DNA from: Nemertoderma westbladi
Taxonomy: Eukaryota > Animalia > Xenacoelomorpha
NCBI GenBank assembly: GCA_032718475.1
Contig: JAUCBJ010000104.1
Span: 1-51,128 of the forward strand
Length of the DNA: 51,128 nucleotides
Direction: 5' to 3'
The stretch's first letter is position 1, and every line of letters starts with the position of its first letter. Below the pieces are notes generated by a model. It worked only from the letters and a program-made list of their open reading frames with translations. It had not been told where the DNA came from and made no database searches. Position numbers and translations under genes: made by a program. Below, piece after piece: positions 5,808-45,000 of the stretch.

Positions 5808-6788
5808 GTGGAGGACTTTAAACAACATTGGAAAGAGCAACTAGTGGAGAATGTTCGAGTATTAAAGATCACCGGTCGAGAGGATGTCGATAGGAGGAAC
5901 TTGCATGCCCTGAAACTTTCTGGAGCTAGTACGAGCCTGAAAAGGACTCGGAAAGTAACGGAGGTGGATGGGCAGTGCTCGTTCTGGGAGGCCTTTAAAG
6001 GAGCCGTTGATGAGACAAGTTGCATTATCGACCGCGGTTTCGAAGGAACTCGAACTTAGGCGCTGCCAGGAGTTTATCGACAGTCACCCGACACTACTTG
6101 ACTACTACGGCGATCTTCGACAGTCGGAGGTGTTGTGTTCTACGCGGGTAGAAGATATAAAGTCTATGGAAGCCTACCAGGCGGAATACAACTCACAGAA
6201 CACCAGTCGATCAATGGTTGTAATCTTCGGCAAGTTTTAATCTGCCGAATTCCTCCACAATCCGAAGATAGACTGGTCGGAGCGTTATGGATCATACCCT
6301 CTGATATAAGAAACCTAATACTGCACAATGGGATCATCAAGATTGGCTCTGATATTAAGAGCGATCTACGTAGCGACTTTATCAGTGCGCTGAAAGATCG
6401 CAAACGGAAACTGGATGTCCTCACCCTAAACAACTTTGTCGATATGCAAGTGTTGCTTGCCTGGATGAGACACAGTAACTGTATGCAACCGTTCCGAGAC
6501 ATTAAGAAGAATAAGACCAGCTTAGGGTATCTAGCTGTACTGAATGGTGGTATCGATTTCAAACCCTACCGGTTCCAGGATTACCTTAAACTCTATCTCG
6601 GCCATGATGACCTATACGTTTCATCCAGGAAAGACCCGCATTGGTGCGATGTAGAGCGGGACTGTGCAATGTACTACCAATGGGAAAACCCCAGCGAACG
6701 ACACTACATATACGTCACCATGGAGTCGTTCACTTTCGGGACCTTCTGCTGTCGAGCGTTGAAAGCCTTAATCCAGTTACAACCCTGA
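5808..6788 (+). pseudogene. Frameshifted DEDDy-type 3'-5' exonuclease gene (copy 1, divergent)
   Basis: ORF 6135-6788 has IPSDIRNLILHNGIIKIGSDIKSD (ExoII region), FVDMQ, KTSLGYLA, and YQWENPSERHYIYVTME (ExoIII-like), collinear with 10367 and 40414 ORFs. Upstream part is split over three frames, so the 5' boundary and ExoI are uncertain. Confidence 0.72.
5903..5978 (+). ncRNA. Solitary copy of structured RNA motif found in the 7.7-8.5 kb array
   Basis: Core AGTA-CGAGCCTGAAAAGGACTCG-GAA (core 5932-5950) closed by ACTTTC/GGAGGT and GCATGCCC/GGGCAGTGC. Expression is not shown. Confidence 0.55.
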
Positions 6789-7712
6789 TCGTTCGACAAA
6801 TGCAGCCTGAAACAGGTTGCCGATCACGCCTTCCAAGCGGTTATCGACATCACGCTGGGAGAAACCCAGTCAAATAAACCCCAGGAAGTGGCGAAAGACA
6901 TGCCAACAGGATATTTCACCTTCCCGGAGGTGTTGGTAAAGAAGAAGAACCTCGCTTTAGCCACCAGGATCTCATTCTTTCCGCCATATTATTCGGACCG
7001 ACGGAAGTTATACGGCGTCTCTATTCGTACCGAGAGGAACTGGGATATGACCAATGGTTCCTTATCGCCCAAAAAGGAGAACTCGATAGACACATCGATC
7101 AGACACCATTGCCTCCCGCAAGCCCAGACAGGAGACAAGTGATGATGGTTTCCACAGTTTCCGATGAGCCTCCACCGGCAGCAGCACTCGATGAGGGGAG
7201 ATGGGCTAAGAAGAGGAAAACCTATAGAGAGAAGCACTCCAAATAGAACTCCCAAGGAACATTGTACCGTATATTTTAGGATTTCATATATAATAAATAA
7301 ACTCTAGGACTAAATAATAACTAAATAAAAACTGATAAAATTATGGAAAATGCCCCCCCCCCCCCCCCCCCCCCCCCCCCGCAGCTCCAGGAACGACGCT
7401 GCAAAGGGTCATTTGGGTGGAGTGTTCGCGTTATTTTCAACCTGGCCCCGGGTACCCACCGAATCACAAACTCATTCCAAATGAAAATTCCAAATATACC
7501 CGGGGATGGTGGGCAAAAAACTAGAAGTCTATAAAACCCAAAATTATTCGATTATGGGCTGTTTTCCGGGAAGGCTGACTATCAAATTGTCAGCTTTCCA
7601 AGGTTAAAAGGTGGCCCTGATATTCAAGGAATCAAGTACTTGGCTTCAGGTAGAGATCCTGACAGCCTAGCCTAGGCCGTGCGTCCGAGCCTAGAGCGAA
7701 GGGACAACCTAT

Positions 7713-9566: not shown

Positions 9567-10109
9567 GGATCTAGGACACTTCCCCCCCGGACAGTTCACC
9601 CTGGACACTTCCCCCTCACCCAAGTAGGACACTTCCCCCCCGAACACTTCTTGCAACAATTTGAAGCAGTTTTTGGCACAATTTGAAGAAGACTATTATA
9701 ATACCTATATTTAAAACAATTAATTATTATAATTCTATAGTTAATAAAAACAGTATATCATTCGGGGGGTGGAATTTATAGGTCATCTAATTAATTGTTT
9801 AAAGATTAGCAAACAATACGATGTAATTGCATTGATAAAACCCATAAATAAAACTTGGATACAAAATGTAAAATCCGGATGCCAAAGATCACTTTCTGAG
9901 CTAAGAAAGGAAAATTGGATACGACTTGTCTGGATACAAGCGGTCCGTTTACCCTACAAAATTAAAAATAAGAATGTGCGAAGTTAAGAACAGTTGGGGG
10001 TGTGGAAGTGTACAGGGGGAAGTGTCTGGGGGGGGGGGGAAGTGTCTGGGGAGGAAGTGTCCTACTTGAACGGGGGGGAACTGTCCGGTGGGGGAAGTGT
10101 CCGCACACC
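9567..10109. mobile_element. MITE family C, copy 1
   Basis: GGATCTAGGACACTTCCCCC.../...GGGGAAGTGTCCGCACACC ends, subterminal GGACACTTCCCCCC repeats, TSD CCACCAAT (9559-9566, 10110-10117); interior homologous to 24900-25545. Confidence 0.88.
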
Positions 10110-10366: not shown

Positions 10367-12607
10367 TTGAAGTATAGAGATCTACCTAATGCTAGCGAAT
10401 GCGCCACCTTGTGGCATCCAGTGGGAATGACTCTAGAAAACGCCACTAAAGAATGGAACGAAACTCTTAACGTTATCGAGATGTATAGAGTTGTCACTTA
10501 CGATAACGAAGGTAGCGTTCCGGGTGGAGAACTGGGAACTACTCGCATGATACATATACGAGGACTAGCTGGTTCTACCCACGTATTTACTCGAGCGTGT
10601 TCCGATGTGATTGATTATTCTTTTGAGACCCTCACCGAGATACAAAAGAAACTCCGACATGGACAATTCGAACTCGCGCAGCGTTACGTCACTGACACCG
10701 AGCGCAAACCGGCCATGGGTATCGATGGATCGATGTTACCCCAGCCCGTGCTCGAGATGTTGTTTAATGAAAGAATCCTTAAAATCGGCTCAGCTGTTTA
10801 TGGAGATCTCCAAAACGACTTTAGGAACATGGAGAATATCCCATATCCTTTTGTAGATACTCAGCTGATTGCTCCCTGGGCAGAAGGCCGAGGTTTCTTC
10901 CGCACTATGTATGCCAATACACCCAGCGGCATTACTAAAGTACAACGAACCTCCATCGGACATCTTGCCTTTCAAGAATACGGATGGAATTTCAAGGTCG
11001 GAAATCCTATCAACTATCAACAAGTATATGGAGATCATTATTCTCGATTATACTTTGACGGACCATTGACCGCACCTGGCGTCATGTATAGCTTTATGAG
11101 TATTCCACTTCGTCCCTCCTTAGCTATATACACGATCTTTGAAAACGCCGCACTTGCCGGTTGGCTAGCCGATGTGTGCAGTCGTACTATACGTGCCCAT
11201 CCCTTAATACTTGGAACCAAACTCGCCAAGCTAGATGAACACAATAAATTCATCCGCTTCGAATGTTTCAGGCACTTTCTGACTCCGTTCCGTAACGTTG
11301 ATAGTCAGTTCAAGGACCGCGCTCTGACTAAGCTCAGCCTAAGAGACTCAGCAGCTGAGAAGTTAGACAGCGCCGGATTCGCCATTTTCAAAGACGTTTG
11401 TATACAGAACTTACATTCCTCTGTTATACAAAGACCTCGAATACCCACGGGTTATTCTATCGTGGAAGTTCAGACAGTGGGTTCGCTTGAGGAGACAGCC
11501 GCACCTACCTCAGCTATGCAATTGGGAGACGAACCAATATGTTTAGAATCCGAGGAGATTCAGCCTACAGCGCCCCGGAGCAGCGACAACGACTACGTCT
11601 TAGAATGGTATCAAGGTCCACAATGTCTCACCGCATACGATTATCGGCACGCCAACTATGTTTCTCGAAAACGTTGCCGATTATACGCATCGAGAGATCA
11701 TCTCACCCCCATGGACTCAGACGTACCCTGCTCCTATTTCCACGAACAACCGGCGATGGAAATCTATTGTGCGTATTGCAGACTCAATAACTTGCACATT
11801 TTCGCAGTCTGCCCCCAATTTATGACTTAATGTCATCATTGTCAACTTAAAGGACATGCCAGTTTTGATTGCCCTTTTAACCGCGATCTGGAAAGCGTAG
11901 ATGAGATGATTACCCTGCGCTACATCCGAGCTTGGGAAGCGAATGCGGATTTACATTGTGAGTCACGCCATCGCTATTACCCTGGACGCGCCTACGAAGG
12001 AGTTTATGCGTTCCATCCTTATCTATTCGCGTCTGTTGAACAAAAATCACGCACACCGAGTTACGAACTAATGAAGCGTGTTGGTGAGTGTATTTCCACG
12101 AAATTTGTTCGTAAATATCTCAGGAACATCAATCCTAACGATATTAATTCATACAACTTGATCAACTTCATTCGTCAAGACCCGGAGTATGGTGATTTGT
12201 TCATCAACTCGCATCCAGAGTTGCAGGAAGTACATCGACGGCCCTACGAATATCGAGCCCGAACTGAACGTGAGTTGGAAAGAACCATTAAACCGAGGAA
12301 GTTTCTCACCACTCACGGTCCACCTACCGCTATCGTTCAGACGACTCGTCAGGGACCAGTAGGAGCTGCTGTCCTAAAATGCGCTCTAAAAGCCATTAGA
12401 CCTCGCTCCACTGAGGTTGATATCGATCAACCAGGTACCTCGACCGGCGGATACACCGACCGTAATCCTAAACCTTCCGATGCAATTGTATTGCACCCTT
12501 CACCCAGGAGTTATAGCCCCCCTAGTAAAGTGGCTCGCCCCAAAGAGAAAAGGACTCTTGCTAGCCTCAAAAAACTGCGTAAACGCCGTCCGCGCAAGAA
12601 AGACTAA
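10367..12607 (+). pseudogene. DEDDy-type 3'-5' exonuclease + CCHC zinc knuckle gene (copy 2), ~746 codons with one in-frame stop
   Basis: VVTYDNEG (ExoI), LPQPVLEMLFNERILKIGSAVYGD (ExoII), FVDTQ, PLRPSLAIYTIFE (ExoIII-like); CAYCRLNNLHIFAVC-PQFMT*-CHHCQLKGHASFDC continues in frame past TAA 11828-11830 into ORF 11906-12607; basic C-terminus KKLRKRRPRKK. True start unclear. Confidence 0.85.
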
Positions 12608-12685
12608 CTGTTTAGAGTATTTTTATATTTTAGAAACTGTGATTATTTATATTTTATAGAATTAAATCCCATTTTCTGGGAGCGG

Positions 12686-13871
12686 TGTAAAGGCTTTTGC
12701 GGTTCTAGCTAGTCATTTTCCCCGCTAAGTACTCTGTAGGTGTTTTAGCGGACATAAAAAGCCGTTTTCTTACTGTGTAGGTGTTTTAGTGGACATAAAA
12801 AGCCATTTTTCTGTATGTGTACTTTAGCGGACATAACAAGCCATTTTATGCCACAATACTCCAAAATACTCTTAATACAGTGTAGTTCAGATGACGACAT
12901 CTATCAGCTGATATGTCCACGTAGAGCTTTTCTTTGTTCTTTGTTCGGCTCGACCAATCAGAGCGATTTTCATTTTATTTGTACAGAAGCCTCCGGGAAA
13001 TCGCGCAATGCATTATGGTCTTTGTTTACCTTTTTTCCTGAGCCCAGAACATCGGCTGTGGAATTACTCTGTGTTTCAGACTTTAGCCAAACATTAGAAC
13101 GGCTTTGATCATAGAAACGTATAACTGTTATCATATCAAGTCACACATTAACTCATCATATTATATTATACATACCTTTCACCGCATTATTTTACTGCTA
13201 TTTACTGTCGGTTATTAATTGTTATCAGGATGTTTGATGGAATGTTGTTATATTTGGAGAATATCGATAAATAATCATAAAACCCCAATCTTCTTGATAT
13301 ACTAAAGGTTAGAGAGACCGATTACATATAGCAATTGCGACTTACATTATAGTGGTTTTGGAGTGAATTGAATGCTATTTCATAGGCCCTACATGTGTCA
13401 ATTGCTGTTCTCTTTATATATGACTAAAATTAGTGAAGGTCGGCAGATCAGTGTACAGCAGTGTGCGGTAGTGTGCATGAGTGTGATAGATAACAAAGCA
13501 TTTCCTAAAGAATGCGCTTTATACGTGAATCATTAGCCATCCCGTTGTGTTTAGTGTAAGTCATAACTCTGTTTACATACTTAGAGCGCCACGTCCTAAA
13601 GGAACTGTTAATATTTCCCGAAAGTGAATAATATTTGTCAGAGATTATATATTAACGATCAATCGAATAGTACAGTAGGCCTACACCGCAATAAGGTCAG
13701 AGCATCCGAATCCAGTCTCCCTTAACCGTGGGTGAATGATCGCGCATAGGCTGGCTTCGGCTAATGTAGCTTTATGTGTATCAAATACTTGTTATAGGCT
13801 AAAGTCGATTTATAACCTAGAAGACACCTAAATTTGGCAGGTTAAACTGCTAAAGGTCTAAAAGCGCGAAC
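12686..13871 (+). repeat. Possible LTR following exonuclease copy 2
   Basis: Short purine tract GGGAGCGG then TGTAAAGG ~80 nt after the ORF stop; non-coding until the junction with the truncated BEL element at ~13870 (…GAACA). No second copy in the window. Confidence 0.25.
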
Positions 13872-13977
13872 AATCACCACGATAGCGCAGGCACTGCCAA
13901 TCTGGCTAAGAAACAAGTGGAGGAAGATCGCCTTCTCCACCCAGGAGAAGAAAGGTGCGGAACCGGGCCTAGAAGAA

Positions 13978-15804
13978 ATGTCGAACTTCCTCAATTATGA
14001 GGCAGAGTTGATTACAGACCCAGTCTACAGTGAGGATAGTTTGGGGAAGGCACCAAAAGCTGAATACAACAGGCCTAAACCCGAACACAGTCCGGCGGAT
14101 CCATTCCCGAGAGTGAGACAGTCGCTACCACATGCGGCCATGCAGGGGACTGCTAGTCCACAGTTAGTTGGGAGTAGGGCCACACAGTGGCAGGGACAGA
14201 AACAAAATAACAACGCAAACAAATATAATCCCAACACACCCTGTAGGCCGAGTCCAAATAACCAAAACACTAAACCGGTAGATATGAATCTACGCGCAAT
14301 ACGTGAAGGGTTATACAGGGAGCGCTACAATCCAGGATACGAATGTCAATTGCATAGGGATGGAACCCATAAGACCATGAGTTGTAAGCAATGGCAAGCG
14401 TTGCCTAAACAAGATCATGTAGCCTACGCGGATACAAATGGACTATGTCATCGATGCGTGGTAGAAGGACACAGATTCGGAGAGTGTAGAGAAACACCGA
14501 TAGGAGACGATGAGACTGGAGGCCAAACCATGGCTACGAGCACAACGGGAGCAAGGAGAAAGAGGAAAGTACTACTTGGGGTAGTACCAGTGAGGATAAC
14601 AGGAAAGGGCGGCCGATCAGTCACAACATTGATGTTGGTCGACAGCGGAGCAGCCTTCACACTGGTGGAGAATTGGCTGGCCGAGGAGATAGAGTTACAG
14701 ACGAGGCCGAGTAGGATGGCAGTAACTACTATCTCGAGCAAGGATGAGGTCCTGGAGATGAGGACGGGAAGGTGCGAGATATCAGCAATAGCACCAGGAT
14801 GTGATTATGGGGCGGCCATTGACTCCATACAGATAATAGAATCGATTAACATAAATGCCAGGCGACCCACTAAAATCAAGGTCGAGCAATTCCTGGACGA
14901 TATCGATTTCTCAATACCGGAAGTGGATGTCTCGAAGGTATCCATCATAGTCAGAATGGATTGTCCGACGGCCCACGAGAGAGTAAGGACCATATTCGGA
15001 GAGAATAAGCAGCGGGATCCGATGGCGATTCTCACGCCGTTCGGATGGACGCTTAGCGGCCCAATTAAAACCAAGATTCCACTCAGGGTGTCGGAGACAT
15101 CAGGGTGCATGCTATCAGGCACTGTTAAGGATGAAGAGGAGAAAGCAGAGACGGGCGATGGGAAGGTCCCATGTGACAAGCGGCCCGGGGAAGGATACCA
15201 GGAGTTGGGTATGGATCTGGAACCACGCATAGTGGAGCTTGGTGAAAGGATAGAGGATCGTTCCAGAGAAATACCATCGGTAGATGAAATAGGAGGGGAA
15301 GCTACAGCAAGAGTGTGGGTGGAGGAGAATGGATTCGACGCGGAAGACTTAGAGACGATGGGATGGGACAAGGATGTTCCCGGCAACTATTGGTATGAGG
15401 ATGGAGAAGAGTGGATGGTGAGATGTCCGGAAAAGTGTCCGGAGGAGATGCCGGTCCGGTTGAGAAGCATACCGAAATGGGGAAGGTCAAATAAGAAGAC
15501 AGGGTGGAAAGGGATAGGATTACTATTATCCATTCTGTTTTATCTATTCTTTCTATTTCTTTTCATTCTACCGCCAGGTGACGACAAGATGAAGGGTGGC
15601 ATTTTGCTGCCAGGGGACCATGAGGAAATCAAGAAGGCGACCGAAAGACCCGATTTTAGGGTGGTAGAGGAGGGAGAATCAATTCCTAGAGAGTTGGATT
15701 TGACGAGGAGAGTGGGGCGAAGGATAAGAGGACCTACAGGCGGGCAGTGGGAGAGTGCCTGCTGGAAGAATCGATGGAAGATCAAGGAATACCTTAGAGT
15801 TTAG
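13978..15804 (+). CDS. Truncated Gag C-terminus + aspartic protease fused to an unrelated acidic/hydrophobic tail
   Basis: CQLHRDGTHKTMSC and CHRCVVEGHRFGEC knuckles, LMLVDSGA protease site, AILTPFGWTLSGP; homology to the full element stops at ~15120, then ~225 aa including GIGLLLSILFYLFFLFLFIL. Confidence 0.8.
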   Translation: MSNFLNYEAELITDPVYSEDSLGKAPKAEYNRPKPEHSPADPFPRVRQSLPHAAMQGTASPQLVGSRATQWQGQKQNNNANKYNPNTPCRPSPNNQNTKPVDMNLRAIREGLYRERYNPGYECQLHRDGTHKTMSCKQWQALPKQDHVAYADTNGLCHRCVVEGHRFGECRETPIGDDETGGQTMATSTTGARRKRKVLLGVVPVRITGKGGRSVTTLMLVDSGAAFTLVENWLAEEIELQTRPSRMAVTTISSKDEVLEMRTGRCEISAIAPGCDYGAAIDSIQIIESININARRPTKIKVEQFLDDIDFSIPEVDVSKVSIIVRMDCPTAHERVRTIFGENKQRDPMAILTPFGWTLSGPIKTKIPLRVSETSGCMLSGTVKDEEEKAETGDGKVPCDKRPGEGYQELGMDLEPRIVELGERIEDRSREIPSVDEIGGEATARVWVEENGFDAEDLETMGWDKDVPGNYWYEDGEEWMVRCPEKCPEEMPVRLRSIPKWGRSNKKTGWKGIGLLLSILFYLFFLFLFILPPGDDKMKGGILLPGDHEEIKKATERPDFRVVEEGESIPRELDLTRRVGRRIRGPTGGQWESACWKNRWKIKEYLRV

Positions 15805-15899
15805 TCATCCAATACGTTGGACTCAGATGGGTGGGAATGAGGGCGAGACGCCCTTCCCACACAAAATATAAAATAAATAATAAAAATAATAATAAGAAG

Positions 15900-16620
15900 T
15901 GAGATAGTAGAAAGTTAGAAAGTAACAGTAGTAGAAAGTTAGATAGTAGGTAGCACTAGTTAAGAGTTAGTAAGAGTTAGTAAGAAGTTAGAAGTTAGGG
16001 AATGTGGTATATAGACATACCACGAGAGTAGTAGCATGGTACATAGTACCGGAGTAGCAGGGTACATAGTACCGTAAGAGTTAGAAGTTGAGGGCACTGA
16101 GGCTTTCCAGGCACCACGTAGTAAGAAAAAAGGGAGTATGGTATGTAGGTATACCATAGAAGTAGCAGTAGAGGGGTTGTGGGCACCGAAAGCGCCACGT
16201 AGAAAGAGAGTAGAGGGTATGGTATGTAGGTATACCATAGAAGTAGCAGTAGAGGGGTTGTGGGCACCGTAAGCGCCACGTAGAAAGAGAGTAGAGGGTA
16301 TGGTATGTAGGTATACCATAGAAGTAGCAGTAGAGGGGTTGTGGGCACCGAAAGCGCCACGTAGAAAGAGAGTAGAGGGTATGGTATGTAGGTATACCAT
16401 AGAGGTAGTAGCAGAGGGGTTGTGGGCACCAAAAGCGCCATGTAGAAAGAGAGTGAAGGGTATGGTATGTAGGTATACCATAGTAGCAGTATTAGGGTAC
16501 ATAGTACCATAGAAGTTAGAGGTTGTGGGCACCAAAAGCGCCACGTAGTAAGAAAGTAAAGGGTATGTAGGCATAGTATAGTAGTAGTAGGGTACATAGT
16601 AAGAAGGAAGAAAGGTAGAT
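15900..16620 (+). repeat. Internal tandem array of element 2 (five 81-bp units plus GAAGTTAG / GGTACATAGTACC flanking repeats)
   Basis: ATGGTATGTAGGTATACCAT recurs at 16138, 16219, 16300, 16381, 16462; each unit has inverted repeat TATGGTAT..ATACCATA. Confidence 0.92.
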
Positions 16621-16686
16621 AGGATAATAGCACAGACAGGGGGGAACATAAGAAAAATAAATTAAAACTAAAGAAAAATTGGCACT

Positions 16687-18647
16687 TTGGGGGTGGTAGA
16701 GAACACAGGACATTGTGGAGCAGTGGGGATGGGCCAGCTCATGGGCCTTGTCTGCCACAAGCCGATGGACTGGGGCAAGTTCTGGGAGGAGCATGGAGCG
16801 GGCAGGGGACATTGTGGAGCAGTGGCGATGGGCCAGCTCATGGGGCTTGTCTGCCACAAGCCGATGGACTGGAGTATGTTGCGAGAGGAGTACGGAGCGG
16901 AGCTGGCGAACTCGCTGAAATGGGGAGCGAGGCCAGGGAAACAGGAGGTGTATCAGTTCCGGAGAGGAGCGATAAAGATATATCAGAAGAGATATATCCT
17001 ACAGGATGACTGGATAATGATAGGTTTACTAAACCTATTCATGGCCGTGGTTATCGGAAGAGAGCCGACAGCGTTTCTGCTATCAGGAGCACCTCTAAAC
17101 TACAGAAGAGCCTTTAAGGTGGCCTTCGAAGGTCTTGTAGACCACCCGGAGCTGAAGGGCAAGTCGGTGTACTACAACAGCCAGCACCTAGTAGACAGGG
17201 AGGTGGATACACCATACAAGAGATGGGAGAAGCTGGAAGCGGATAGACTTGAGGAGAAGCGACTGGAAGAAGTCGCCAGGCGAGAAAGGAGGGAGGCAGA
17301 TGAGAGAGAGGCGGAGATTAGGGGAGAGGACTACGGGTTCGAGGCCCAGACCTTGGACGAGCTGAGGTGGGTATCAGGGAGCTCGGGCGAGTTTCTGGGG
17401 GAGGACCTAGGATGGACGGAAGAATCGCCAAAACAGTTGACATCGGGATTGCAAGCGATGCCCATGCCAGCGGGCTCTGAGGGCGATTCCGTAAGAAAGA
17501 GACCGAGGGAACAGGAGGGATGGAAAGTTACGGGTAGAAGCCAAGGCAGAAAGGGACACAGTGGGTCTACCGGGATACTGGGTCTGGATCCACTCCCGGT
17601 GATGGAGGGGGATGACGACGGGTTCGGGGAGATGCCGCCCATCGGGGGGATCGGCCGCTGAGATATGGACTGGGTGGGCGGGAGAGTGGTGACGGCCAGC
17701 GGGGCGAGGGCCTTCTGGGATAAACCCGGCAAGCGAACCTGGGTGCACGAGGAGCCAGCGATGGATTTCGCGGGGAGCATCATCAGGTTGGGCGAGCAAC
17801 TGTGAACAGCACCACGGGTAGTGTTTGGGGAGACAATGCCAAGGCGGGAGGAGGACGTAGATATGGATAGAGACGTTAATGTCCAGAAGTTTGCTTACCA
17901 ACGGCTCCACAGACCTAGGAGACCGCTCGGGGCAAAAGACGACTTGGGGCGGGATGCGTTGATACACGGCTGTGATTACTGTGGGAGTCTGACTCACCAG
18001 GAAAAGAGCTGTTTGTATCGATTTCAGAAGGGGATGAGTTGCCTCTACTGCCGCGAGTCGAGCCATAGGATGGGAGCATGTCCGAGGCTGCACAACTGCT
18101 GATCAAAGTGTAACTTCCGAGGGCACTATGGGCGCCAGTGCGAATAGATGGACGATGAGGAGAAGTTTAAGATCTTCGAGGAGTGGGCCGACGTTGGCGT
18201 TATGATGCGACAGAGGATGAAGGCCCAGGAGTTCCGGTGGGGTTTCTTCAACATCAATCAGGAAGCCCCACATACCAGGAGGAAGCGACAGCGGCATCGT
18301 ATGGAGGAGTCATCAACACGCAGAGGTATTTGGATCGATGGACGCCAGAAAACAGAGGAGAGTTTAGGGATTTTCTGGCGGAGCACGTGCCGCGAACGAT
18401 GAAAATGATATTGTGGAACGCTACCAGGGGGAAGCAGGAGGGGCATTCGGAAGGGCCACCTGCAAAGCGTTACCGGGAGTTGATAACACCAGCGCCCAAA
18501 GAATCGACCACGGGAATTAGCAAGGCGGTAATGGCGAGAATGAGGAGTCTCAGGGAGGACAAGCCAGAGGGAAGGAAGCGACCCAGACAAGACGATGACA
18601 GGGGGAAAGAACTAAGATGGTTCCTGAAGACGGGAGGAGCGAACTAG
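16687..18647 (+). pseudogene. Decayed exonuclease-Zn knuckle ORF (copy 3), close paralog of 40414-42948
   Basis: Near-identical peptides (GAVAMGQLMGLVCHKPMDW, KRYILQDDW, CDYCGSLTHQEKSC, CLYCRESSHRMGAC); lacks first ~220 codons, has a 99-bp tandem duplication at the start, in-frame stops (17661, ~17805, 18102, ~18147) and a frameshifting deletion near 18265. Confidence 0.93.
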
Positions 18648-19292
18648 GACTCAAAGGGGAAATGTGGGCGTGCCTGGAAGGCACCACATAGGGGAGTATA
18701 TATACGAACTCCTAAGTGCAAAATATAACTAAGTGCAATTAGTATGTATGTATGTAAATAATCAATATAATCAGAATGAATATAATCAAAGTAAGTACTA
18801 TAGTCATATACAACCTTTTCCAATTAGCTACTGGGATTGGGGACCACTTGACTACAATCGGACGAGACTTAGACGGATCCCACTAACATGATGCACACAT
18901 GTGTGGGACCCAATAAGTGCATGAAGGATGAGAACCAAAATGGGTTGAGTACGAGGGAAGTATGGAGAGGAGGTGTTGGCGTGTGTGGAAGTGAGAGGAG
19001 TGCAATTCAAGTGTGGGGAGCGAGCAGTAAGAGAGAGAGTAAGGGACGAAGAGGTCCGAGAGTAAGATTAGAGAGAGGATCTAGAAAATTGTGCGAAGAG
19101 AGTCCACAATTGTCTCGAACAGAGACCCCAGATACCTTGGTGCAACATAGCTCGCGATTGCACCAAGGAGGGGTAGCAATAACATACCCAGGAGGAGCGG
19201 CCTGGAAAGCCAACCCCGAGAAAAGAACTCCACTCCACACCCGATAGTAGATTGGGTTCTATCTTCTCACCGGGAAGATAGCATGGGGGGAG

Positions 19293-19735
19293 TGCAAGCA
19301 GATTCAATTCCACTTCATTACCCACCAGAAAATGGGACTTGTGGCATTTTAGCAATATGTTGGGGATACGAGATTACCAATATTAATCTCGTATCACAAC
19401 CAACATTGGGGGGAGGGGGGGGGGGGCGACACAAGCCCCAAAGCCACAGAGAAAGGTGAGAGGTCAAAACCACCTCGGAGGGAAGGCAGCTAGTAGAGGC
19501 TAGCAGCACCGGTCATAGTTAATGACCGCCACCACCATACCGGTAATAATTAACTTGTATTTTCTGCTTATTATCTACTGGCGTGCTATTATCGTCCATA
19601 TTAATCAATATCGAGAGACAACAGAAACTCTTACTGTTTTTCCCCAACGGCCTCGGCCAAAGCTACTAGCACGATCCCCAGCAGAACGGTGATGCGTACA
19701 TTTCTAACCCGGTCGGGATCTCTGATCCCGTCACA
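19293..19735 (+). repeat. 3' LTR of element 2 (443 bp)
   Basis: Begins TG immediately after GATAGCATGGGGGGAG (same PPT context as 43641-43657) and ends GATCCCGTCACA exactly like the full element's LTR. Confidence 0.85.
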
Positions 19736-33000: not shown

Positions 33001-36000
33001 AGGAAGACAGTAGTAGAAGTATCGCCGCAAACGATAGAAGAGCGAGGACGGACAGCGAGCCGTCGGTAGTCGAGATGAGAACGGAGAGTCAGTGGGGTCG
33101 GACTCCGGGAGATTGCCGTCGCCCCGGAGGGATACGATCCGGTGAGACGCATTACACGCCGAGAGAGGGGTACGCGATGTACCGGTACGAAGATGAAAAC
33201 AGTGGAGAGGGGGGTCGAAGAGAAACTTTCCGACGGAATATACCTACCGATCGAGAATACGGTAGCCGCGGGGAGGATTATTCGAGAAGAATAAACTTCG
33301 ATCCCGAGCAACACATGCAGACTGTAGGGCATACTGTAGGTCTTACTGCACATACCGTAGGCCATACTGAGAGAGGCAATGTAGGCGATAGGATAGCGCG
33401 GACAACGGGATTAAACCCGGAAGTCGCGGAATACATACCGGCGAGTAGGCCAGAAGCTGATAGGCCTATACCGGTACCAGCACAGCAGTATGACTACAGC
33501 ATGCAGGGACATAACATATACCCAGGGGAGGGGGGAATTATTGCGGATAGGTGTATGGGCCCCAACATATTAACATCAACCCCAGTACCAGACATACCGG
33601 TGGGGGGGGGACAGGGTGACATTCCCCCATCACGATATCAACAATATACCCCGACAGGAACAAGAACAATGAGACCCCTAGATGAAAACAGGTCGTGTGA
33701 TACAGACATATGGAGGGGGCCGCTACCCCCGATGACATATCCGAGTCAGAGAAGATCAAGAAATAGGACGGACGAACCGCACCAGACAAGGGAAACTATA
33801 CAGCACCCGTCGAATCCATTAGAAGCGCAGGCAATGGGGATGGCCACGATGATCGATGCGTTGAAAACGAGGATCGAATTACCACCCGTGGAACCGTTCA
33901 AATTCGATGGGAGCAGGCCGGAAGAATACTTACAGTTTCGGCGAATGTATAGTAACGAAATACTAACAAAAAACTTGACGCAGGCGGAGTGCCTAAAGTA
34001 TCTACAAGTGTACACGGGAGGCCCAGCATACGATATCGTGAGGCAATACCAAGGAATAGAGGGCGGCTTCACGACAGCATGGCGGGCACTGGATAGGGAA
34101 TACGGGCACCCGGCCAAGATCATCAGGCAGACGCTGAGAGGCATAACATCGGGTGGCCTACAGGATAATCCCGTTAGCATTAAGACGTTTGCTAACAAAG
34201 TCGAGAAGGCGCTGATCGTGCTGAAGACGCTAGACGCGCCATACGAACTCAACGCGTCCAATAACATCACCACGATAGCGCAGGCACTACCGAGCTGGCT
34301 GCGCAACAAATGGAGGAAGATCGCTTTCTCCACCCGAGACAAGAAGGGTGCGGAACCAGGTTTAGAAGAAATGTCAAACTTCTTAAATTACGAGGCTGAA
34401 CTAATAACGGACCCAGTTTATAGTGAAGATAGCCTGGGAAATGGACCAAAGACAGATCATTACAGGCCCAAACCAGAGCACAATACATCGAACGCGTTAC
34501 CGAGACTCAGGCAATCATTGCCATATGCAGCGACGCAGGGGACTGCAAGTCCACAGACAAGCGAAGATAAGACAACATCAAGGGACGGACAGGGGAACAA
34601 TAACAACATGAATAAACATAACCCCAGTACGTCCAGTAGGTCAAACCCAGTCAATAAGAATAGTAGGGACTTTGGTACGAATATAACTGCGATACGCAAT
34701 GCATTATATAAAGAGGGCTACGACCCAAAGAGCAAATGCCAGTTACACGCAAATGCGCTTCATAAAACCATGAACTGCAGGTACTGGCAGGCGCTACCGA
34801 GGCAAGACCAGATAGATTACGCGTCGAGCAATAAAATCTGCTCGCGATGTGTGAAGAGTGGACACAAGGCCAGGGAATGCCAAGAGAAACCGGTCAAGTT
34901 TGGCCAAAGGAGAGGCCAGACGATGGCAACGAGCACAGTAGGGGCGAAGAAGAGAGGAACAGTGCTACTTGGAGTAGTACCAGTACGAGTGATCGGGGAA
35001 GGCAATCGATCAGTAACAACACTAATGCTGGTTGATAGTGGAGCTGCCTTCACATTAGTTGAGGAATGGGTAGCCGAAGAAATAGGGTTGAGAACGAGGC
35101 CAAGCAGGATGGCGGTGACAACCATCTCTAGTAAAGACGAGATCCTAGAGATGAGGACAGGACGGTGCGCAATTGCAGCAGTGGCACCAGGATGCGATTA
35201 TGGGGCAACCATCGACCCCATCCAAGTAATAGAGTCAATTAACATCAATGCCAGGCGGCCAACCAACATCGAGGTCGAGCAATACAAATTCCTGGATAAC
35301 ATTGACTTCTCAATCCCAAACGTGGACGTTAGGAAGGTATCCATCATAGTAGGCATGGACTGCCCAACGGCCCACGAGAGAATGCAAACGGTCTTCGGCG
35401 AAGACAAGCAGAGCGACCCGGTGGCCATATTAACGCCATTCGGGTGGACGCTGAGTGGTCCAATTAAGAGCAAGATACCATTCAGGATGTCGGAGACATC
35501 AGGATGCATGTTCGCGGGAACAATGCAGGAAATGGGTGACGAGGGAGCAGAGGAGCAGCTTAAAAGACTGCTCAGACAGGACTTCGAGGGACTGAAAGAG
35601 ACCGGGGTCGGGACCTCGGTAGAAGACAAGCAGGCTCTACAAAGTGTGGAGGAATCGATGACGTGTGATGAGGGGCGGTATACAATAGGAATGGTGTGGA
35701 AACTACCGAAGATACCGCTACCCGATAATAGAGGGATGGTACTCACGAGACTCCGCAAGCTGAAACAAACACTACAACGGAGTCCCGAGAAGAACGAGTA
35801 CATTCACAAAACCATTAAGAAGTACGTCGAGAAAGGATGGGCCGTGGAGTTACCGGTCGACGAACCGAACACGGACAGGACATACTACCTGCCACTCCAC
35901 GTAGCTTTAGACCCAAAGAAAGGTAAACTTAGGATGGTAGTCGATGCATCGGCAAAGACCGACGGAAAGTGCTTAAACGATTACCTACTAGAGGGCCCAA

Positions 36001-39000
36001 ACATATACAATTCGGGCATAGAAGTACTACTTAGATTTAGGAATGGGGAAACACGCCTTCACGTGTGACATAGAAGGCATGTTCAACCAAGTCCGAGTAG
36101 CAGAGGAAGATAGCGATAGTCAACGCTTCTTATGGTATAACGGCGAAGAAGAACCGCCTATAATACCGGCATATAAGATGGTAGTACAAAACATGGGGGC
36201 CAAGTCGTCCTCATTTACGACGACTATGGCAGTGAGAGACACGGTAAAGGGGAAGGAGGATAGATATAGCAGTAGGGCCGTCGACATGATCAGACGCGGT
36301 TTCTACGTAGACGACGGCATGGAGTCTGGAAATACGGTTGAGGAGATACTGGAAACAGGGCGCGAGGTTCGCGACATCCTGAGAGGATCCGGCTTCAACC
36401 TGACCAAATTCCAATCCAGTTCAGAAGAATTTATCAGGGAAATAGAGGACAAGAAACCAGAATCGACCATGGACAACCCTACAACAGCCAAAGGACAGGA
36501 CATGGCGATTAAGAGAACGGAATCCCAGCAGAAGGCGTTGGGAATCGTGTGGGATAGAAAAACAGACGAACTGAAGTATCAGCTGAGCCAGGAGGGCGCA
36601 GACACCCATACGAAGAGGGGTTACGTATCGTATATAGCAAGGATATACGATCCCCTAGGCCTAGCATCCCCATTACTAGTCACGGGGAAACAGATACTCA
36701 AGAGAGTATATAAGTTGAAGGATGAGTGGGACGTAGAGGTACCAGAAGACATTAAGAAACAGTGGAGCAAATGGACAGGAGACTTGGAGAGGATGGGAAC
36801 ATACAACATGCCGCGAGTGTATTTCCCGGACGGCAACATGACGAATCTGGACCTACATATGTTCTCCGACGCGTCGTTAGAGGCATACGGAGCGGCACTC
36901 TATTTAGTACAACGAGAGGGGCCTCACAAGCCCAGACTAGCCTTTAGCAAAGCTAAGTCAACGCCGCCAGATTCAGCATCTGTTCCCAAGTTAGAATTGA
37001 CAGCCGCGAGACTAGGAGTTAGAGCCACAGCCTACCTAGTGGATACAATTCCCAACATAGTGGAGACACACTACTGGACGGACTCCATGGTAGTGCTTGG
37101 TTGGCTACACAACGAAAAGACGAGGTACCCGATATTCGTCGCGAATAGAGTGGACGAAATAAGGGCGAGCACAGAACTAGAAAGGTGGCACTACTGCCCA
37201 ACAGACGAGAACCCAGCGGACTTGCTGTCGAGGGGCGTGGAACGCCGCACTTTCTTAAAGAAAGAAGCATTGTGGCAACACGGGCCACAATTTCTGAGCG
37301 ATAGGGAGGCCTGGCCGCCGATGAGGAAGGTGGACCCGGGCTCGGAAGTAGTATCAGAAGGAGAAGAGGGAGATTCAGAGGGAGAAGAGATATACTCCCA
37401 GATGGTGAGGGAGATCAGGGACGTGCAACCAGGAAGGGAACTGTGCGATAACCCGACGGATAAACTCCTCAGCTACAGTTCTAGTTGGTATAAGACCAAG
37501 AAACTAGTGGCGTACTGGAGAGCCTTTGGGAATTTCCTTGCGGGAGTCGGCAAGGACAAGAAGACCAGGACAACCATAGATCTGGAAGGAGCGGCCAAGG
37601 CAGTGATCCGCTATGAACAACGCAAGAACTACGGCGACGAGGTGGAACGTGTCGGTAACCAACAACATCTCCGACGGGATAGCGAGTTGATCACGCTGTC
37701 GCCACAACTCAACGAGGATGGGATCCTAGTAATGAATTCTAGGGTGGGATATAACAACAGTATAGTCGTACCACCGAAACCCATCATCATTCCCACGGGA
37801 TCGCCTATAGTCCACCAGATCATATGGGACTCCCACAAATCGATACTGCATGGGGGCACCAACCGAACCCTCACGGAGATAAGAAGGACCTATTGGGTCA
37901 AACAATTAAGGAAGAAGGTGAAAGCGGTAGTGGGACAGTGCCAGACCTGCCGACGAGCGAAGAAGGAGCGAGCCGTACAGGAGATGGCGCCACTACCGGC
38001 GAGTAGGGTAAGACAGCACGACCCGCCATTTACGCATTGCGGTGTGGACATGTTCGGGCCGATAAAGATCAAGGTGATGCGACACACGGAGAAACGCTAC
38101 GGTATTATCTTCGTATGCAACAATACGCGGGCGGTAGGGATAGAACTCGCCCAGGATGCAACCGCATCAGCCTTCATTAACGCCTTAGAAAGGTTTAGGG
38201 ACCGCAAAGGTGGGACGATCGCAGTGATATACAGCGACAACGGCACCAACTTTGTGGGCGCAGAGAGTGAGATGGCAGAGGCCTTAGACATCTTGGAGGG
38301 AGAAGAAGTCAGGGCGGCCATGAGAAGACGACAAGTGAAGTGGGAGAGACGGACGCCGTATGCACCACATACACTAGGATGCGTCGAAAGACTGGTGGGC
38401 AGTTCGAAACGTCTAATGACGAAGCTGATGAACACCCACATGGTCACTGAAGACGTCTTACGGACAGTACTTGCAAAGTGCGAGGGGATCATTAATAGCA
38501 GACCGCTATACCCGGAGAATGATGACCCTGAGTCATTAGACGTGTTGACGCCTAGCCATTTCCTGATGGAAAGGCCAGTGACCATAGATATGCGGGGTGT
38601 AGACCCAGATGATATACACTCCCGCCAAAGTTGGAAAGTAGCTAAAGCAATTAGCGCAGAGTATTGGAGGAGGTGGGTAGAAGAATACCTACCAACGCTC
38701 CATAAGCGAAGCAAGTGGAGGAAGCCAAACAGGGAGTTGAGAGAGGGAGATCTCGTAATCGTCACGGATGATACTATCATCAACAACCAATGGCGGTTGG
38801 CGAGAGTTGTAGGCACCTACTCCGACGAGGACGGAAGAGTCCGATCGGTAGAAGTGCGGATAGGTGGAAAGATAGGTGCGAAAGACAGAAAAACCTACAG
38901 GAGAGCAGTAGGTAAATGCTGTCTTCTAGAAGGGGCACCTTAAATTAGAGTTAGTGTGAAGTTTAGTCGTCCAAGTTTTGGACTGAGGGGGGTGGGATTG

Positions 39001-42000
39001 AGGGCGAGACGCCCTTCCCACACAAATAAAATAAAATAAAATAAAAATAAATAAAAGTTAGTTAGTTAGTAGGTACGTAGTACCTAGAGTTAGTTAGTTA
39101 GTAGGTACGTAGTACCTAGAGTTAGTTAGTTAGTAGGTACGTAGTACCTAGTTAAAGTTAGAGTTAGTAGGTACGTAGTACCTAGTTAGAGTTAGAGTTA
39201 GAGGGTACGTAATGCCTAGTTAGGGTTAGAGAGTAGGTAGTACCGATAGAGTTAGAGTTAGTAGGTACGTGGTACCTAGTCAGAGTTAGAGTTAGTAGGT
39301 ACGTAGTACCTAGAGTTAGTTAGTTAGTAGGTACGTAGTACCTAGTTAAAGTTAGAGTTAGTAGGTACGTAGTACCTAGTTAGAGTTAGAGTTAGAGGGT
39401 ACGTAATGCCTAGTTAGGGTTAGAGAGTAGGTAGTACCGATAGAGTTAGAGCTAGCAGGTACGTAGTACCTAGTTAGAGTTAGAGTTAGTAGGTACGTAG
39501 TACCTAGTTAGAGTTAGAGTTAGAGGGTACGTAGTACCGATAGTTAGAGAGTTAGTAGGTACGTAGTACCTAGTTAGAGTTAGAGTTAGAGGGTACGTAA
39601 TGCCTAAGAGTTAGAGTTAGAGGGTAGGTAGTACCGATAGAGTTAGAGCTAGTAGGTACGTAGTACCTAGTTAGAGTTAGAGTTAGTAGGTACGTAGTAC
39701 CTAGTTAGAGTTAGAGTTAGAGGGTACGTAGTACCGATAGTTAGAGAGTTAGTAGGTACGTAGTACCATTAGTTAGAGTTAGAGTTAGAGGGTGCGTAAT
39801 GCCTAGTTAGAGTTAGAGTTAGAGGGTAGGTAGTACCGATAGAGTTAGAGTTAGTAGGTACGTGGTACCTAGTCAGAGTTAGAGTTAGAGGGTACGTAGT
39901 ACCATTAGTTAGAGAGAGAGAGTAAGAGGTAAAAGGGGTAAAATAAGATATAGATATTAGATAGCAGTAAGTAGAGTTAGTAGTGAGAGGGGGGCATATG
40001 AGTGCAGCTGGATAAATCGTGTGGCCACACGACGCATACTGCTGTACTGCATAGGCCCACTGAGTAGGCCAGAATATGGATCAGAGAATAGAATAAATCC
40101 ATAGGCAGTAGTAAGTAGTAGGACAGTAGAATCAAAGCAAAATAAATAAGTAAATAGAATAGGGCTAAAAATCGGAAAATAGTGGTAACACAAGGAAAGT
40201 CGTTCTAGAACATAATAAAAGTAACGGACGGAAATTGTAAATTAGGCTGATTTACTAGCTCCGAAATTAATTAGATTAAATTAAGCTTGAAAGGCGCAGT
40301 TAAGTAGAAAAGTAGGCCATTATCGAACTGTAGGAAACATCTCAATACATCACTCATCTGTATTGCGCCTTGGTAAGGCACCACCCTACAGGTGAGCGAG
40401 TGTAGTGTTCGGAATGGCGAGTAAGCTGATCAGGAAGAGAAAGGCGGAGTCAGGAGGAAAAGAAATATTGGTGGATTTCACCGAAAGACACCCTGAGGAG
40501 AAGACGAGAGGATACTACGAGAGGTTGGAAAGGGGTCACGCGGCACGAGCGCTGCAGGATCACTTCCGGGAGGCGCACGAACAGCGGTTGGTCGGAACCT
40601 ACGGGACGCCGTCGCTGGATAATGCGATCTTCCAACACTTCCACTACGTGGTGAAAGGAGACGAGGCGAAGTTCGGAATTCCGAAGTATCCGAGGGAATC
40701 GCCGAGGAAGGACTGGAAAAGATTCATAGAGTCCGTCAACAGAGGAGGATATATGATCCTAGATGACGAGGGAACCGTGGAAGACGAAGCGGGTTCGAGA
40801 CGAGGAACGGCAGGGTCGGCCAGGACCATACTCTTGCATTTGGCAGCGCCAAATGGGGACATCTTCTTATTCGACTTAGGGACGTATGGGAAGAAGGACG
40901 GGCCGAAATTAGACCGACTGCCGAAAGCGGTACAGGTCTTAGTAAGAGAGAAGTCGACGACGAAAGTGGGATCGGCGATTCGCGAGGACGCGGAGAGGAT
41001 CATCGGTCCGGACGCCACCAACCTCCTGGATATGCAGAAAGTCTTTATGGCTATGACGGCACCGGATGGATTGGGGGTGGTCGAGAACTCAGGCCAATGC
41101 GGGGCGGTGGCGATGGGCCAATTATTGGGGCTCGTATGCCACAAACCAATGGATTGGGGGAAGTTTAGGGAAGAATACGGAGCAGAACTAGCGAACTCGC
41201 TGAAGTGGGGAGCGAGACCGGGAAAGCAGGAGGTATATCAGTTTCGCAGAGGAGCGATAAAGGTATATCAGAAGCGATATATCCTGCAGGAGGACTGGAT
41301 GATGATAAGTTTGCTTAACTTATTCATGACCGTAGTTATCGAAAGGGAACCAGGGGCATTTCTGTTATCGGGATCACCCCTAAGCTACAGGAGAGCCTTT
41401 AAGACGGCCTTTGACGGTCTGGTAGACCACCCGGGGCTGAAGGGCGAGTCGGTGTACTACAACAGCCGACATCTGGTAGATGGGGAGACAGATACACCGT
41501 ATCAGAGATGGGAGCAGCTAGAGATGGATAGACGGGAAGCAAAGCGATTGGAAGAAGTCGCTAGACGGGAGAGGATAGAAGCAGAGGAGAGGGAAGAGGA
41601 GGCCAGGACACAGAGTTATGGCTTCGAGGAACAGGCGGGTCTAGACGAGCTTCATTGGACTTCGTCAGGGAGTTCGGGGGAGTCTCTAGGACGAGAATTG
41701 GGATGGACGGTGGGATCGCCGAAACAGTCGACGTCGGGGTTGCAGACGATACCCATACCAGCGGGCGCCGAGGGCGACCAACCGCCAAGGAAGTTAAGGG
41801 AGCTAGAGGGATGGAGAGCTACGGGCGAGAGCCAAGGCGGGAAGGGACATAGTGGATCCATCGGGATACCGGGATTGGAGACACTGCCAGAAGAGGAGGA
41901 CGACGACGACGAGTTCGGAGAGATACCGCCCATCGAGAGGATAGGCCACTCGGACACGGACTGGGTTGGCGGGAGGGTGGTGACGGCCAGTGGGGCGAGG

Positions 42001-45000
42001 GCCTTCTGGAACAGATCCGGCAAGCGGACCTGGGTGCACGAGGGGCCGGCGATGGATTTCGCGGGGAGCACCATCAGGTTGGGCGAGCAACCGGGGACGG
42101 CACCACGGATAGTATTCGGGGAGACGATGCCCGAGAGGGGCGGAGAGATAGACGTAAACAGGGAGAGCAATGTAGAGAAGTTCGCCTACCAGCGACTCCA
42201 TAGACCGCGGAGATCGCTTGGGACGAAGGACGAGGTGGGACGCGAGACATTGGTACTCGGCTGCGACTACTGTGGGAGACAGACCCATCAGGAAAGCAGC
42301 TGCCTATACCGGTTCCAACGGGGAACCTTTTGTCTCTATTGTAGAGAACCAAGTCACAGGATGGGGGCGTGTCCACGGTTGCATAACCGATGTCCAAAGT
42401 GCCACTTTCGGGGGCACTACGGACGCGAGTGCGACTGGATGAGCGACGAGGAGAAGTTCACGAGGTTCGAGGAGTGGGCCGACGTCGGGGCCATGACGCG
42501 CCAGCGCATGAAGGCCCAAGAGTTCAAGTGGGGTTTCTTCCTCATAAACCAGGAGACCCACATGGAAATCATAAAGCGAAGGTTACCGTTTACCTATCAA
42601 GAGGTAGCTACGGCGGCATCGTTCGCCGGAGTTATGAACACGCAACGGTACCTGGACAGGTGGACACCAGAGAACCGGAGGGAGTTTAGGGATTTCTTGG
42701 CGGAACACGTACCAAAGGCAATGAAGATGATCCTATGGGACGCCACACGAGGGAAACAACCAGGCCATTCTGAGGGGCCACCGGCGAAGCGGTATCGGGC
42801 TTTAATAACACCAGCGCCCAAGGAGCCGACGACCGGGATCAGCAAGGAAGTGGCAGCGAAGGTCCGGAAGCAGAAAGCGGATGATGCCAGAGGAGCGGTG
42901 ATAACCAAGAAACGGGCCAGGGAGGAGGACGTGAGGAGGTACAGATAAGTTCCCGGAGGAGAGGGAATGGGACTGAGACTGGGACGTGGTGCGCCTGGAA
43001 GGCGCCGCATGTAACGTACGAACTATTAAGTATAAATTTAATTAATGCAAATAACTATATAAGTGCAATTCGTATGTACGTACGTAGTGATTAGCAGTAA
43101 AATACATACGTTTGGAGTAAGTACTATAGTCATACAACCTTTCTCAATTAGCTACTGGGACTGGGGGACAATGACTATGGCACTATGGACGAGACAACTG
43201 ACAATTTCACACTTCTTGAGTGCGGCGGCACGAGAGGGGGGGGGAGGTTCGTCAGGAGAGATAAAAACAGTCAAAGTGGACTTGAGAATCGGAATAAGAG
43301 TGTGAAGTGCGGAGAGAGTGCGAACGCAATTCTAGTGTGGGGGGGGGAATGAGAGGCTGAGTAAGGGACGAGGAGGTCCGGGGGTATGAGAGAGAGTTAG
43401 GGTGAGAGTAGAGGGGAGGTAGGGCGAAAGTGTTGGGGAAACAAAAATCGCGTGAAGAGGTGAGCGCGATCGGCCCGACATGAAACGCCAGGCACACAGG
43501 GTAGCGATATCATACCCATAGGGGGCGGCCTGGAAAGCCGGCTCCGAGAGAAAAGAATTCCACCCCACACCCGATGCTAGATCGGGATCCAGCGGGATTG
43601 TAGCGCACTTTTTTGGTTGATGCTATCTTCTTACCGGGAAGATAGCATGGGGGGGAGTGTTAGCTTATTCAATCCCGCCAACACCCCATAAAGTTATTAG
43701 CCGATAAGCAATATTGGGAGCCACGAGATTGGGTAATTAACCAACTCGCGCCATCCCAATAAGAATGGGAAGGAAGCACACAATAGAGGGTCAGGGGCCA
43801 AACCCCTAACCCAGAGAGAACAAGTGGAGTGAACGGGAATACTCCACGGGGCGCCAACAAGGGTATTAACCAATCAGAGGGGGGAATGGCATCGATTGAG
43901 TAGCAGTAAGGCCACCGTGCAATATAACCAATAACCTATTAATCAGTGATTCAGTTATCTCAGTGCAGCAGTGCTAGCGTAGGGTACAGCCAATTAGTTT
44001 AGTTAGGGGATCACGGGACTTTAGTTACCGTATCCCGCCTTGTACACATTCACAACATATCTATATCTTATAACCTCTTATTATACACCGAACTTCAGAA
44101 CTCAATTATCTTTACTTCACCCTTACACACGGCGGGGACGCGTGGACTAAATACCACACCGGATAAATCGGGATCCCTCCTGGATCCCGTCACAATCTAA
44201 GCAATTTCAATGGAATTGTATAGTTAACTGGACGTTCAGTTTTATAAATGAATTCAAACTGTACACTTCATTTAAACATAAATCTCAGAAAAATTTTGTT
44301 TAAAAAACTACAAATAAAAAGTACAGTAAGTTAAGTAAAACTAAAGAACATTGGAATCGGATGGATAAAGAGAAAAAAAAATAAAGACAACATAAAGATG
44401 GAACATAAAGATGGAACGTAAAGATGGAACATAAAGATGGAACATAAAGATGGAACGTAAAGATGGAACATAAAGATGGAACGTAAAGATGGAACATAAA
44501 GATGGAACGTAAAGATGGAACATAAAGATGGAACGTAAAGATGGAACGTAAAGATCGAACATAAAGATTGAACATAAAGATGGAACATAAAGATGGAACG
44601 TAAAGATGGAACATAAAGATGGAACGTAAAGATGGAACATAAAGATGGAACATAAAGATGGAACGTAAAGATGGAACATAAAGATGGAACATAAAGATGG
44701 AACGTAAAGATGGAACATAAAGATGGAACGTAAAGATGGAACATAAAGATGGAACATAAAGATGGAACATAAAGATGGAACATAAAGATTGAACATAAAG
44801 ATGGAACGTAAAGATGGAACATAAAGATGGAACGTAAAGATGGAACATAAAGATGGAACGTAAAGATTGAACATAAAGATTGAACATAAAGATAGAACAT
44901 AAAGATGGAACATAAAGATGGAACGTAAAGATGGAACATAAAGATGGAACATAAAGATGGAACGTAAAGATGGAACATAAAGATGGAACATAAAGATGGA

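Follow-up and report, generated by a model that had tools for sequence, protein, structure and literature searches.

A predicted DEDDy exonuclease gene with zinc knuckles in a young BEL/Pao retrotransposon of Nemertoderma westbladi

BEL/Pao elements and the four exonuclease-like copies

The window analysed here, a stretch of 51,128 nucleotides from Nemertoderma westbladi (contig JAUCBJ010000104.1), contains four sequences that resemble DEDDy exonucleases, numbered copies 1 to 4 along the plus strand, and copy 4 is carried by a full-length BEL/Pao long terminal repeat (LTR) retrotransposon of 14.4 kb at 29776..44194 (plus strand). Comparison of the window with itself revealed a 5′ LTR (29776..30312) and a 3′ LTR (43658..44194), both 537 bp long, 100% identical and with TG...CA ends. 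The element is flanked on either side by ATCTA, a 5-bp target duplication, and a polypurine tract precedes the 3′ LTR. The gag-protease region (30365..36065) was recognised in its reading frames by the Pfam matches DUF1759 (E 7e-11) and Asp_protease_2 (E 3e-5), and the pol region (36022..38940), with reverse transcriptase (RT), Pao RNase H region and integrase, by Peptidase_A17 (E 3e-40), DUF5641 (E 5e-24), Integrase_H2C2 (E 1e-12), rve and RVT_1. The order of domains is thus gag, protease, RT and RNase H, followed by integrase, with Pao-type domains. BEL/Pao elements are described as metazoan elements (PMC3118150). The gag-protease frame breaks close to poly-G runs at 32054, 32686 and 32732, and the frame changes within the RT near 36045; these breaks may be assembly errors or real.

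Behind pol and a tandem-repeat spacer of about 850 bp (39064..39914; 34-bp unit, 25.9 copies), copy 4 is the third open reading frame (ORF3), in the env position of this very recent insertion. It starts with an ATG at 40414, runs to 42948 and encodes 844 aa, consisting of a DEDDy-like domain, a charged linker, three zinc knuckles and a basic tail. The ExoI motif (DxEG) has its Asp at 40762 and its Glu at 40768, the ExoII Asp is at 40987, and ExoIII reads YILQE with the Tyr at 41278 and the Glu at 41290. The three CX2CX4HX4C knuckles start at 42262, 42331 and 42391 (42262-42432).

A deleted sister element lies at 13846..19735 (plus strand). It retains a gag-protease piece, an integrase end, a repeat spacer (15905-16600, with an 81-bp array at 16114-16483) placed like that of the copy-4 element, a partial ORF3, a polypurine tract and a 443-bp 3′ LTR (19293-19735) recognised by its ends. 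The two elements have 72% nucleotide identity in the gag region and 73% in ORF3, and tblastn agrees; their LTRs differ, with the last 12 letters in common. The partial ORF3 is copy 3 (16687..18644, plus strand), which lacks ExoI and ExoII; its match to copy 4 begins behind ExoII, at copy-4 residue 233 of 850. It has YILQD at 16993, a 99-bp internal duplication, stops at 17659, 17803, 18100 and 18145, and CCHC-type knuckles at 17971 and 18040, followed by a third one that contains a stop. Over 150 codons, copies 3 and 4 differ with a synonymous divergence (dS) of 1.04 and a non-synonymous divergence (dN) of 0.096. The resulting dN/dS of 0.09 at dS of about 1.0 indicates that strong purifying selection acted on ORF3 during the divergence of the two families.

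The other two copies lie outside these elements. Copy 2 (10427..12607, plus strand) has DNEG at 10502, the ExoII Asp at 10805, YTIFE at 11129, two knuckles (11768 and 11831) and a basic tail. Its single in-frame stop, at 11828 between the knuckles, was not found in the public-run contigs that cover the same place. Copy 1 (5742..7246, plus strand) is decayed, with in-frame stops at 5790, 6057, 6099 and 6786; it has the ExoII Asp at 6363 and YVTME at 6711, and at 6036 it reads GFEG (GxEG in place of DxEG), so that the first Asp is lost. No knuckles were seen in copy 1. Both copies are without introns, broken and placed among nested, truncated repeats. The original prediction had announced four exonuclease copies of three deeply diverged lineages. 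The analysis confirmed all four sequences with their motifs, and the ExoIII readings and the knuckles of copies 2 to 4 were found as described, but copy 4 is the one whole copy. The contrast in strand composition was also confirmed (A+G 51.5%, 49%, 64% and 63% in copies 1 to 4).

Outside the motifs, neither copy 1 nor copy 2 aligned to copy 4 better than shuffled sequences did (local scores 39 and 41, shuffle maxima 50 and 48), which agrees with the three lineages. The predicted lack of anything beyond motif-level similarity, except between copies 3 and 4, holds for these pairs but not between copies 1 and 2; copy 1 is nearest to copy 2 (tblastn 27% over 111 aa, E 1e-6; local score 95, maximum 42 in 200 shuffles, z 16). 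The knuckle block links copies 2 and 4 (score 78, maximum 55 in 500 shuffles), and both keep a knuckle doublet in the same order. The similarity of their tails vanishes when Cys and His are masked (27, shuffle mean 27).

Public runs of the same organism add information on abundance and variation. In run X3 the copy-2 region was covered by single contigs at depths of 7,329 and 6,179, while near-identical flank contigs stayed below 6; depth does not give a copy number, and the window itself may stem from X1 or X3. Since the depth lies so far above the flanks, copy 2 is a member of a very abundant repeat family, which continues to about 13860. Copy 1 had shallow cover. Around the copy-2 ExoIII (11040-11190), covered by 601, 146, 3 and 10 contigs with 19 variant rows, no variant at ≥2% fell in the Tyr codon or at the first or second position of the Glu codon, whose third position varied synonymously only. 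Here 12/16 segregating variants were synonymous against an expected 0.29 (p 2e-4; rows not independent). Among the 40 of 2720 variant rows listed, 19 fall in the copy-2 ORF: 12 of these segregate (10 synonymous), and 7, of which 5 are non-synonymous, differ from the window in at least 97% of the depth. In the relatives of copy 3, the ExoIII codon encodes Glu in 99.9% of the summed depth (run X1); therefore the Asp is peculiar to that copy, and Glu is the state of its family. Taken together, codon changes show purifying selection on the exonuclease gene in two lineages, that of copies 3 and 4 and the copy-2 family, in agreement with an old family kept by selection.

Copies 3 and 4 sit within BEL/Pao elements, which establishes them as borne by transposable elements; for copy 2 this is likely from its very deep cover. 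The flanks give no evidence of an element class for copies 1 and 2: no gag, pol or LTR was seen beside them, and 82 frames of at least 62 aa contained no gag/pol or other Pfam domain, with two weak matches below the cut-off.

Some further observations concern these elements. No TGG primer site was found in the first 10 nt after the 5′ LTR of the copy-4 element. The first 9 nt past this LTR (30313-30321) are complementary to 30138-30146 inside it, which was reached in 0.4% of 5000 shuffles; this is a hint, from base pairing, of self-priming or of a non-tRNA primer, and the site is not present in the LTR of the copy-3 element. The gag region opens (30392-32062) with a charged ORF of unusual length that resembles a coiled coil; it contains internal repeats of 111 bp and 33 bp and had no Pfam match. 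In both BEL elements a purine-rich tandem array separates pol from ORF3, with a unit of 34 bp in the copy-4 element and 81 bp in the copy-3 element. A 13-bp satellite of about 160 copies (44378-46473) begins 180 bp past the 3′ LTR.

Around copies 1 and 2, the non-coding tail behind copy 2 (12604-13860) has the deepest cover of the region, in two peaks; it contains a 41-bp triple repeat, adjoins the BEL gag fragment and has no polypurine tract. No purine run of 12 or more was found behind copy 2. A 41-bp unit that folds as a small hairpin occurs about nine times near copy 1, once in frame within its 5′ part (5922-5962) and as an array behind it (7712-8506). The unit had no Rfam match, and the Rfam scan gave one chance match and no ribozyme; a hammerhead label for this repeat was dropped for that reason. 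An element like a miniature inverted-repeat transposable element (MITE) is present in two copies (9565-10112 and 24892-25552), with GGACACTTCCCCCC sub-terminal repeats and apparent target duplications of 7-8 bp; the first copy interrupts the C-rich leader of copy 2.

Fold and the ExoIII residue

Language-model searches, a bacterial DEDDy profile and a guided model together make a DnaQ/DEDDy fold likely for these proteins. The ExoI D-x-E on the first strand was found in copies 2 and 4, in the altered form GxEG in copy 1, and is gone from copy 3. The ExoII Asp of copies 1, 2 and 4 aligned on the conserved Asp column, and the same copies carry a K[IV]GSxxxxD block and a D[MT]Q block. A hidden Markov model (HMM) of 52 bacterial DEDDy domains (RNase D, NrnC, WRN-like, PolA), run on the six-frame window, gave matches only to the ExoII block of copy 2 (E 0.0087) and to that of copy 4 (E 0.13), and profile-profile comparison with hhalign gave a score of 34.3, against a maximum of 16.1 in 30 column shuffles. 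In the ESM Atlas, 25/30 matches of copy 4 (0.95) and 24/30 of copy 2 (0.92) belonged to the PF01612 set, in whose clusters 34-41% of members carry the family. A copy-4 model guided by the bacterial DEDDy alignment reached a predicted local distance difference test (pLDDT) value of 72; the values were 84-94 for the strand of ExoI and the helix of ExoII, and 72-87 along the ExoIII helix. With Foldseek, this model matched trypanosome RNase D (TbRND) first (E 4e-5), with EXD2, Nibbler and RICE1 following among the top matches, and it matched pandoravirus exonucleases among viral models.

Several results weigh against this assignment or against reading a function from it. Pfam gave no exonuclease match for any copy, a PDB sequence search with the four-copy profile gave no match, and the WRN-like and NrnC sub-profiles gave no significant one. 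The model built from the four copies alone was poor (pLDDT 33). Because the guided model was built on the bacterial DEDDy alignment, its fold matches are largely circular, and with VIA it did not separate the classes: TbRND, Egalitarian, EXD1, Nibbler, WRN, RNase D and polymerase exonuclease domains tied (Z 10-11, root-mean-square deviation about 4, 155-177 aligned residues). Word-indexed protein searches, a weak method for proteins this divergent, found no relatives among 1517, 7253 and 2811 candidates. None were found in viral contigs, in metagenome contigs or by exact look-up of 8 proteins, and a plasmid search gave one chance match at E 6.

The canonical ExoIII motif of the class is Y-x3-D, and this block is present in all 52 bacterial reference domains. 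Copies 1, 2 and 4 read Y-x3-E instead, and copy 3 alone has Y-x3-D. When copies 3 and 4 were aligned by MAFFT with 32 bacterial DEDDy domains, the copy-4 QKRYILQEDW was set on QxxYAAxDxW-type blocks, with Tyr on Tyr, the Glu of copy 4 and the Asp of copy 3 on the catalytic Asp, and a matching Gln three residues before the Tyr. With an ExoIII block profile, the same register came first in both copies, among 150 windows in copy 4 and 140 in copy 3. These results suggest with good confidence that in the lineage of copies 3 and 4 Glu replaces the ExoIII Asp while the Tyr is kept, giving a putative D-E-D-E metal site. Two points count against it. The register falls to second place when the acid column is masked, and an extra Asp stands directly after the motif in both copies (YILQDD, YILQED) and could serve instead.

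The original prediction gave the variant to all lineages, and for copies 1 and 2 its placement did not receive the same support. MAFFT did not set their Y-x3-E on ExoIII; the block profile put it second among 157 in copy 2 and not within the first three among 129 in copy 1. As neither method placed it, the register of these copies rests on the motif, on like spacing and on an ungapped match by eye of FMSIPLRPSLAIYTIFE in copy 2 to RNase D. The spacing is 54-62 aa behind the preceding G-x-L helix in the three lineages, 20-28 aa longer than the 34 counted in RNase D. The purely synonymous variation of the Glu codon in the copy-2 family adds weight. We regard a replacement by Glu in all lineages as probable on these grounds, with clearly less assurance than for copies 3 and 4. 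If Glu truly replaces an otherwise fixed Asp across such distant lineages, it would be a natural variant of the two-metal DEDD site and merits a structure.

YLGHD at 6594, the first choice of the block profile in copy 1, was considered as a canonical ExoIII and rejected: there is no Y-x3-acid at that place in copies 2 and 4, and it lies only 23 aa past the G-x-L helix.

Proposed function and rival explanations

We lean, with modest confidence, towards a copy-4 protein that is an active 3′-5′ RNA-trimming enzyme whose zinc knuckles hold the RNA, as predicted from its motifs and by analogy. In this account copy 4 is the third gene, still intact, of a young BEL/Pao retrotransposon, and the damaged copies 1 to 3 are its relatives. 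The acids and the Tyr are kept in two barely alignable lineages, which argues for catalysis, and several gag-type knuckles stand behind the domain as in TbRND, which argues for RNA as the substrate. Two metal ions may cleave single-stranded RNA in the 3′-5′ direction, while the C-terminal knuckles feed the RNA 3′ end to the active site, like in the trypanosome enzyme. The most likely role would be an accessory one within the element's own ribonucleoprotein, where the protein may trim 3′ ends belonging to the element's RNA, to its primer, or to small RNAs that are directed against the element and silence it. We rank an RNA-trimming enzyme as most likely, above a binding-only adaptor and then a DNA exonuclease.

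TbRND is among the closest known systems. Its C-terminal CCHC domain raises RNA binding and cleavage (PMC7797062; PDB 7C42-7C4C), while a review puts the knuckles at the N-terminus (PMC9181182). Like copy 4, it has a DEDDy domain followed by several CCHC knuckles, but it is an enzyme of the cell that trims guide RNAs, and its four knuckles follow the domain at a short distance, whereas copy 4 is a transposon gene with a long charged linker. At 19-20% identity, the same design was probably reached separately.

The adaptor reading holds that the fold is kept with weak or no cutting, and that the protein binds RNA like EXD1 or Egalitarian, for example routing or shielding the element RNA, with the Glu as a tolerated change in a site that now serves binding. 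The ExoIII Asp appears to be replaced, Egalitarian and EXD1 tie with active enzymes in the guided fold search, and inactive DEDD derivatives that keep RNA binding are named in PMC5408684. Against this, every catalytic place is still occupied in copies 2 and 4, which can barely be aligned, by Asp-Glu, Asp, Tyr and an acid, and the abundant copy-2 family is fixed for the Glu codon. Dead nucleases usually lose catalytic residues. We consider this reading fairly unlikely. An exonuclease for single-stranded DNA, which trims or proofreads reverse-transcription products or integration ends, appears very unlikely to us. The DEDDy class includes WRN and polymerase proofreading domains, which tied in the same search, and the DEDDy domains of Dada transposons are proposed to process DNA 3′ ends (PMC3706591), but a separate ORF with three gag-type CCHC knuckles suits RNA better, and the only solved DEDDy-plus-CCHC protein among the matches is an RNase.

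The origin of copies 1 and 2 is a further matter. They may not derive from a BEL ORF3; elements of another class may have carried them, or a host DEDDy gene may have been captured separately each time, and the shared Glu would then be due to convergence or misalignment. This is possible though doubtful, and it is compatible with an RNA-trimming enzyme in copies 3 and 4. Their flanks without gag or pol, the missing purine run and purine skew, and exonuclease scores against copy 4 inside the shuffle range fit this origin, as do the rotifer DEDDy ORFs common to LTR and Penelope-like elements (PMC5408684). On the other hand, the three lineages have in common K[IV]GS at ExoII, Y-x3-E and the longer stretch before ExoIII, and copies 2 and 4 the ordered knuckle doublet. 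One family across the three lineages is plausible. Copies 1 and 2 are highly unlikely to be ordinary host genes (EXD/Mut-7-like) or pseudogenes of such genes. No element ends or transposase were seen beside them and the cover of copy 1 is shallow, but the depth of 6,000-7,300 in X3 contradicts a single-copy state for copy 2, and both copies are intronless, broken, among nested repeats and without a Pfam match. Host EXD and WRN genes give a Pfam match. For copies 3 and 4, a single-copy host gene is contradicted by the position inside BEL elements. A broader scenario, which we hold to be quite unlikely, is an ancient transposon-only subfamily of D-E-D-E exonucleases with CCHC knuckles, passed among BEL/Pao and other classes within this animal lineage. 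It would have made at least one family extremely numerous and would act in counter-defence by trimming or destroying silencing small RNAs.

A function is known for few of the accessory genes that LTR retrotransposons carry. A DEDDy ORF3 is reported in the Juno and Vesta LTR retrotransposons and the Athena/Terminon elements of bdelloid rotifers; its motif is given as DEED in place of DEDD, and these sources demonstrate no activity (PMC5408684; further sources PMC6431247 and PMC5718144). Like here, Juno and Vesta carry the DEDDy-like ORF3 behind pol with the catalytic residues intact except for one Asp-to-Glu change, and it is shared between unrelated elements. The comparison is by description only: there the motif is DEED, whereas here the carrier is BEL/Pao, the last acid is changed (DEDE), and the protein has 844 aa and three CCHC knuckles. 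The intact, selected exonuclease-plus-knuckle gene of a very young BEL/Pao element would extend the rotifer observation to another superfamily, and its protein can be expressed and assayed. Should its substrate be a small silencing RNA, the transposon would encode a suppressor of silencing.

Cer19 is also a BEL/Pao element. Like the present element, it has an extra ORF with zf-CCHC knuckles between its LTRs, Cer19-ORF2 of Caenorhabditis (PMC7084138); the word exonuclease occurs neither in that paper nor in PMC3118150 and PMC13524379. The Dada (DEDDy) and KolobokD (DEDDh) elements also encode DnaQ-type exonucleases (PMC3706591, PMC9587614), but these are DNA transposons, and Dada keeps the four DEDD residues within its transposase. 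The accessory protein described in PMC10309623 is unrelated. In the literature covered, there was no exonuclease ORF in BEL/Pao elements or with CCHC knuckles, and no DEDE variant of the DEDDy class, although Repbase, Dfam, subscription papers, figures and supplements lie outside this coverage and may hold such families. The gene is best seen as a predicted exonuclease cargo under selection, with knuckles and a likely D-E-D-E site, whose BEL/Pao carrier appears to be new for such cargo.

Other features of the window

The window is repeat-rich animal DNA with one clear host gene, a long single exon of TFIIH p34/Tfb4 (3-575, minus strand; Pfam E 6e-29) that runs off the window end. Its match with human p34 (E 3e-18) is closer than the one with yeast Tfb4 (E 9e-12). 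A tRNA search of the window found none. Palindromic CTACGCGTAG repeats form inverted clusters at 854-927, 4439-4649 and 5346-5543, which are probably the ends of another MITE family. A 147-bp tandem repeat of about six copies occupies 49579-50446.

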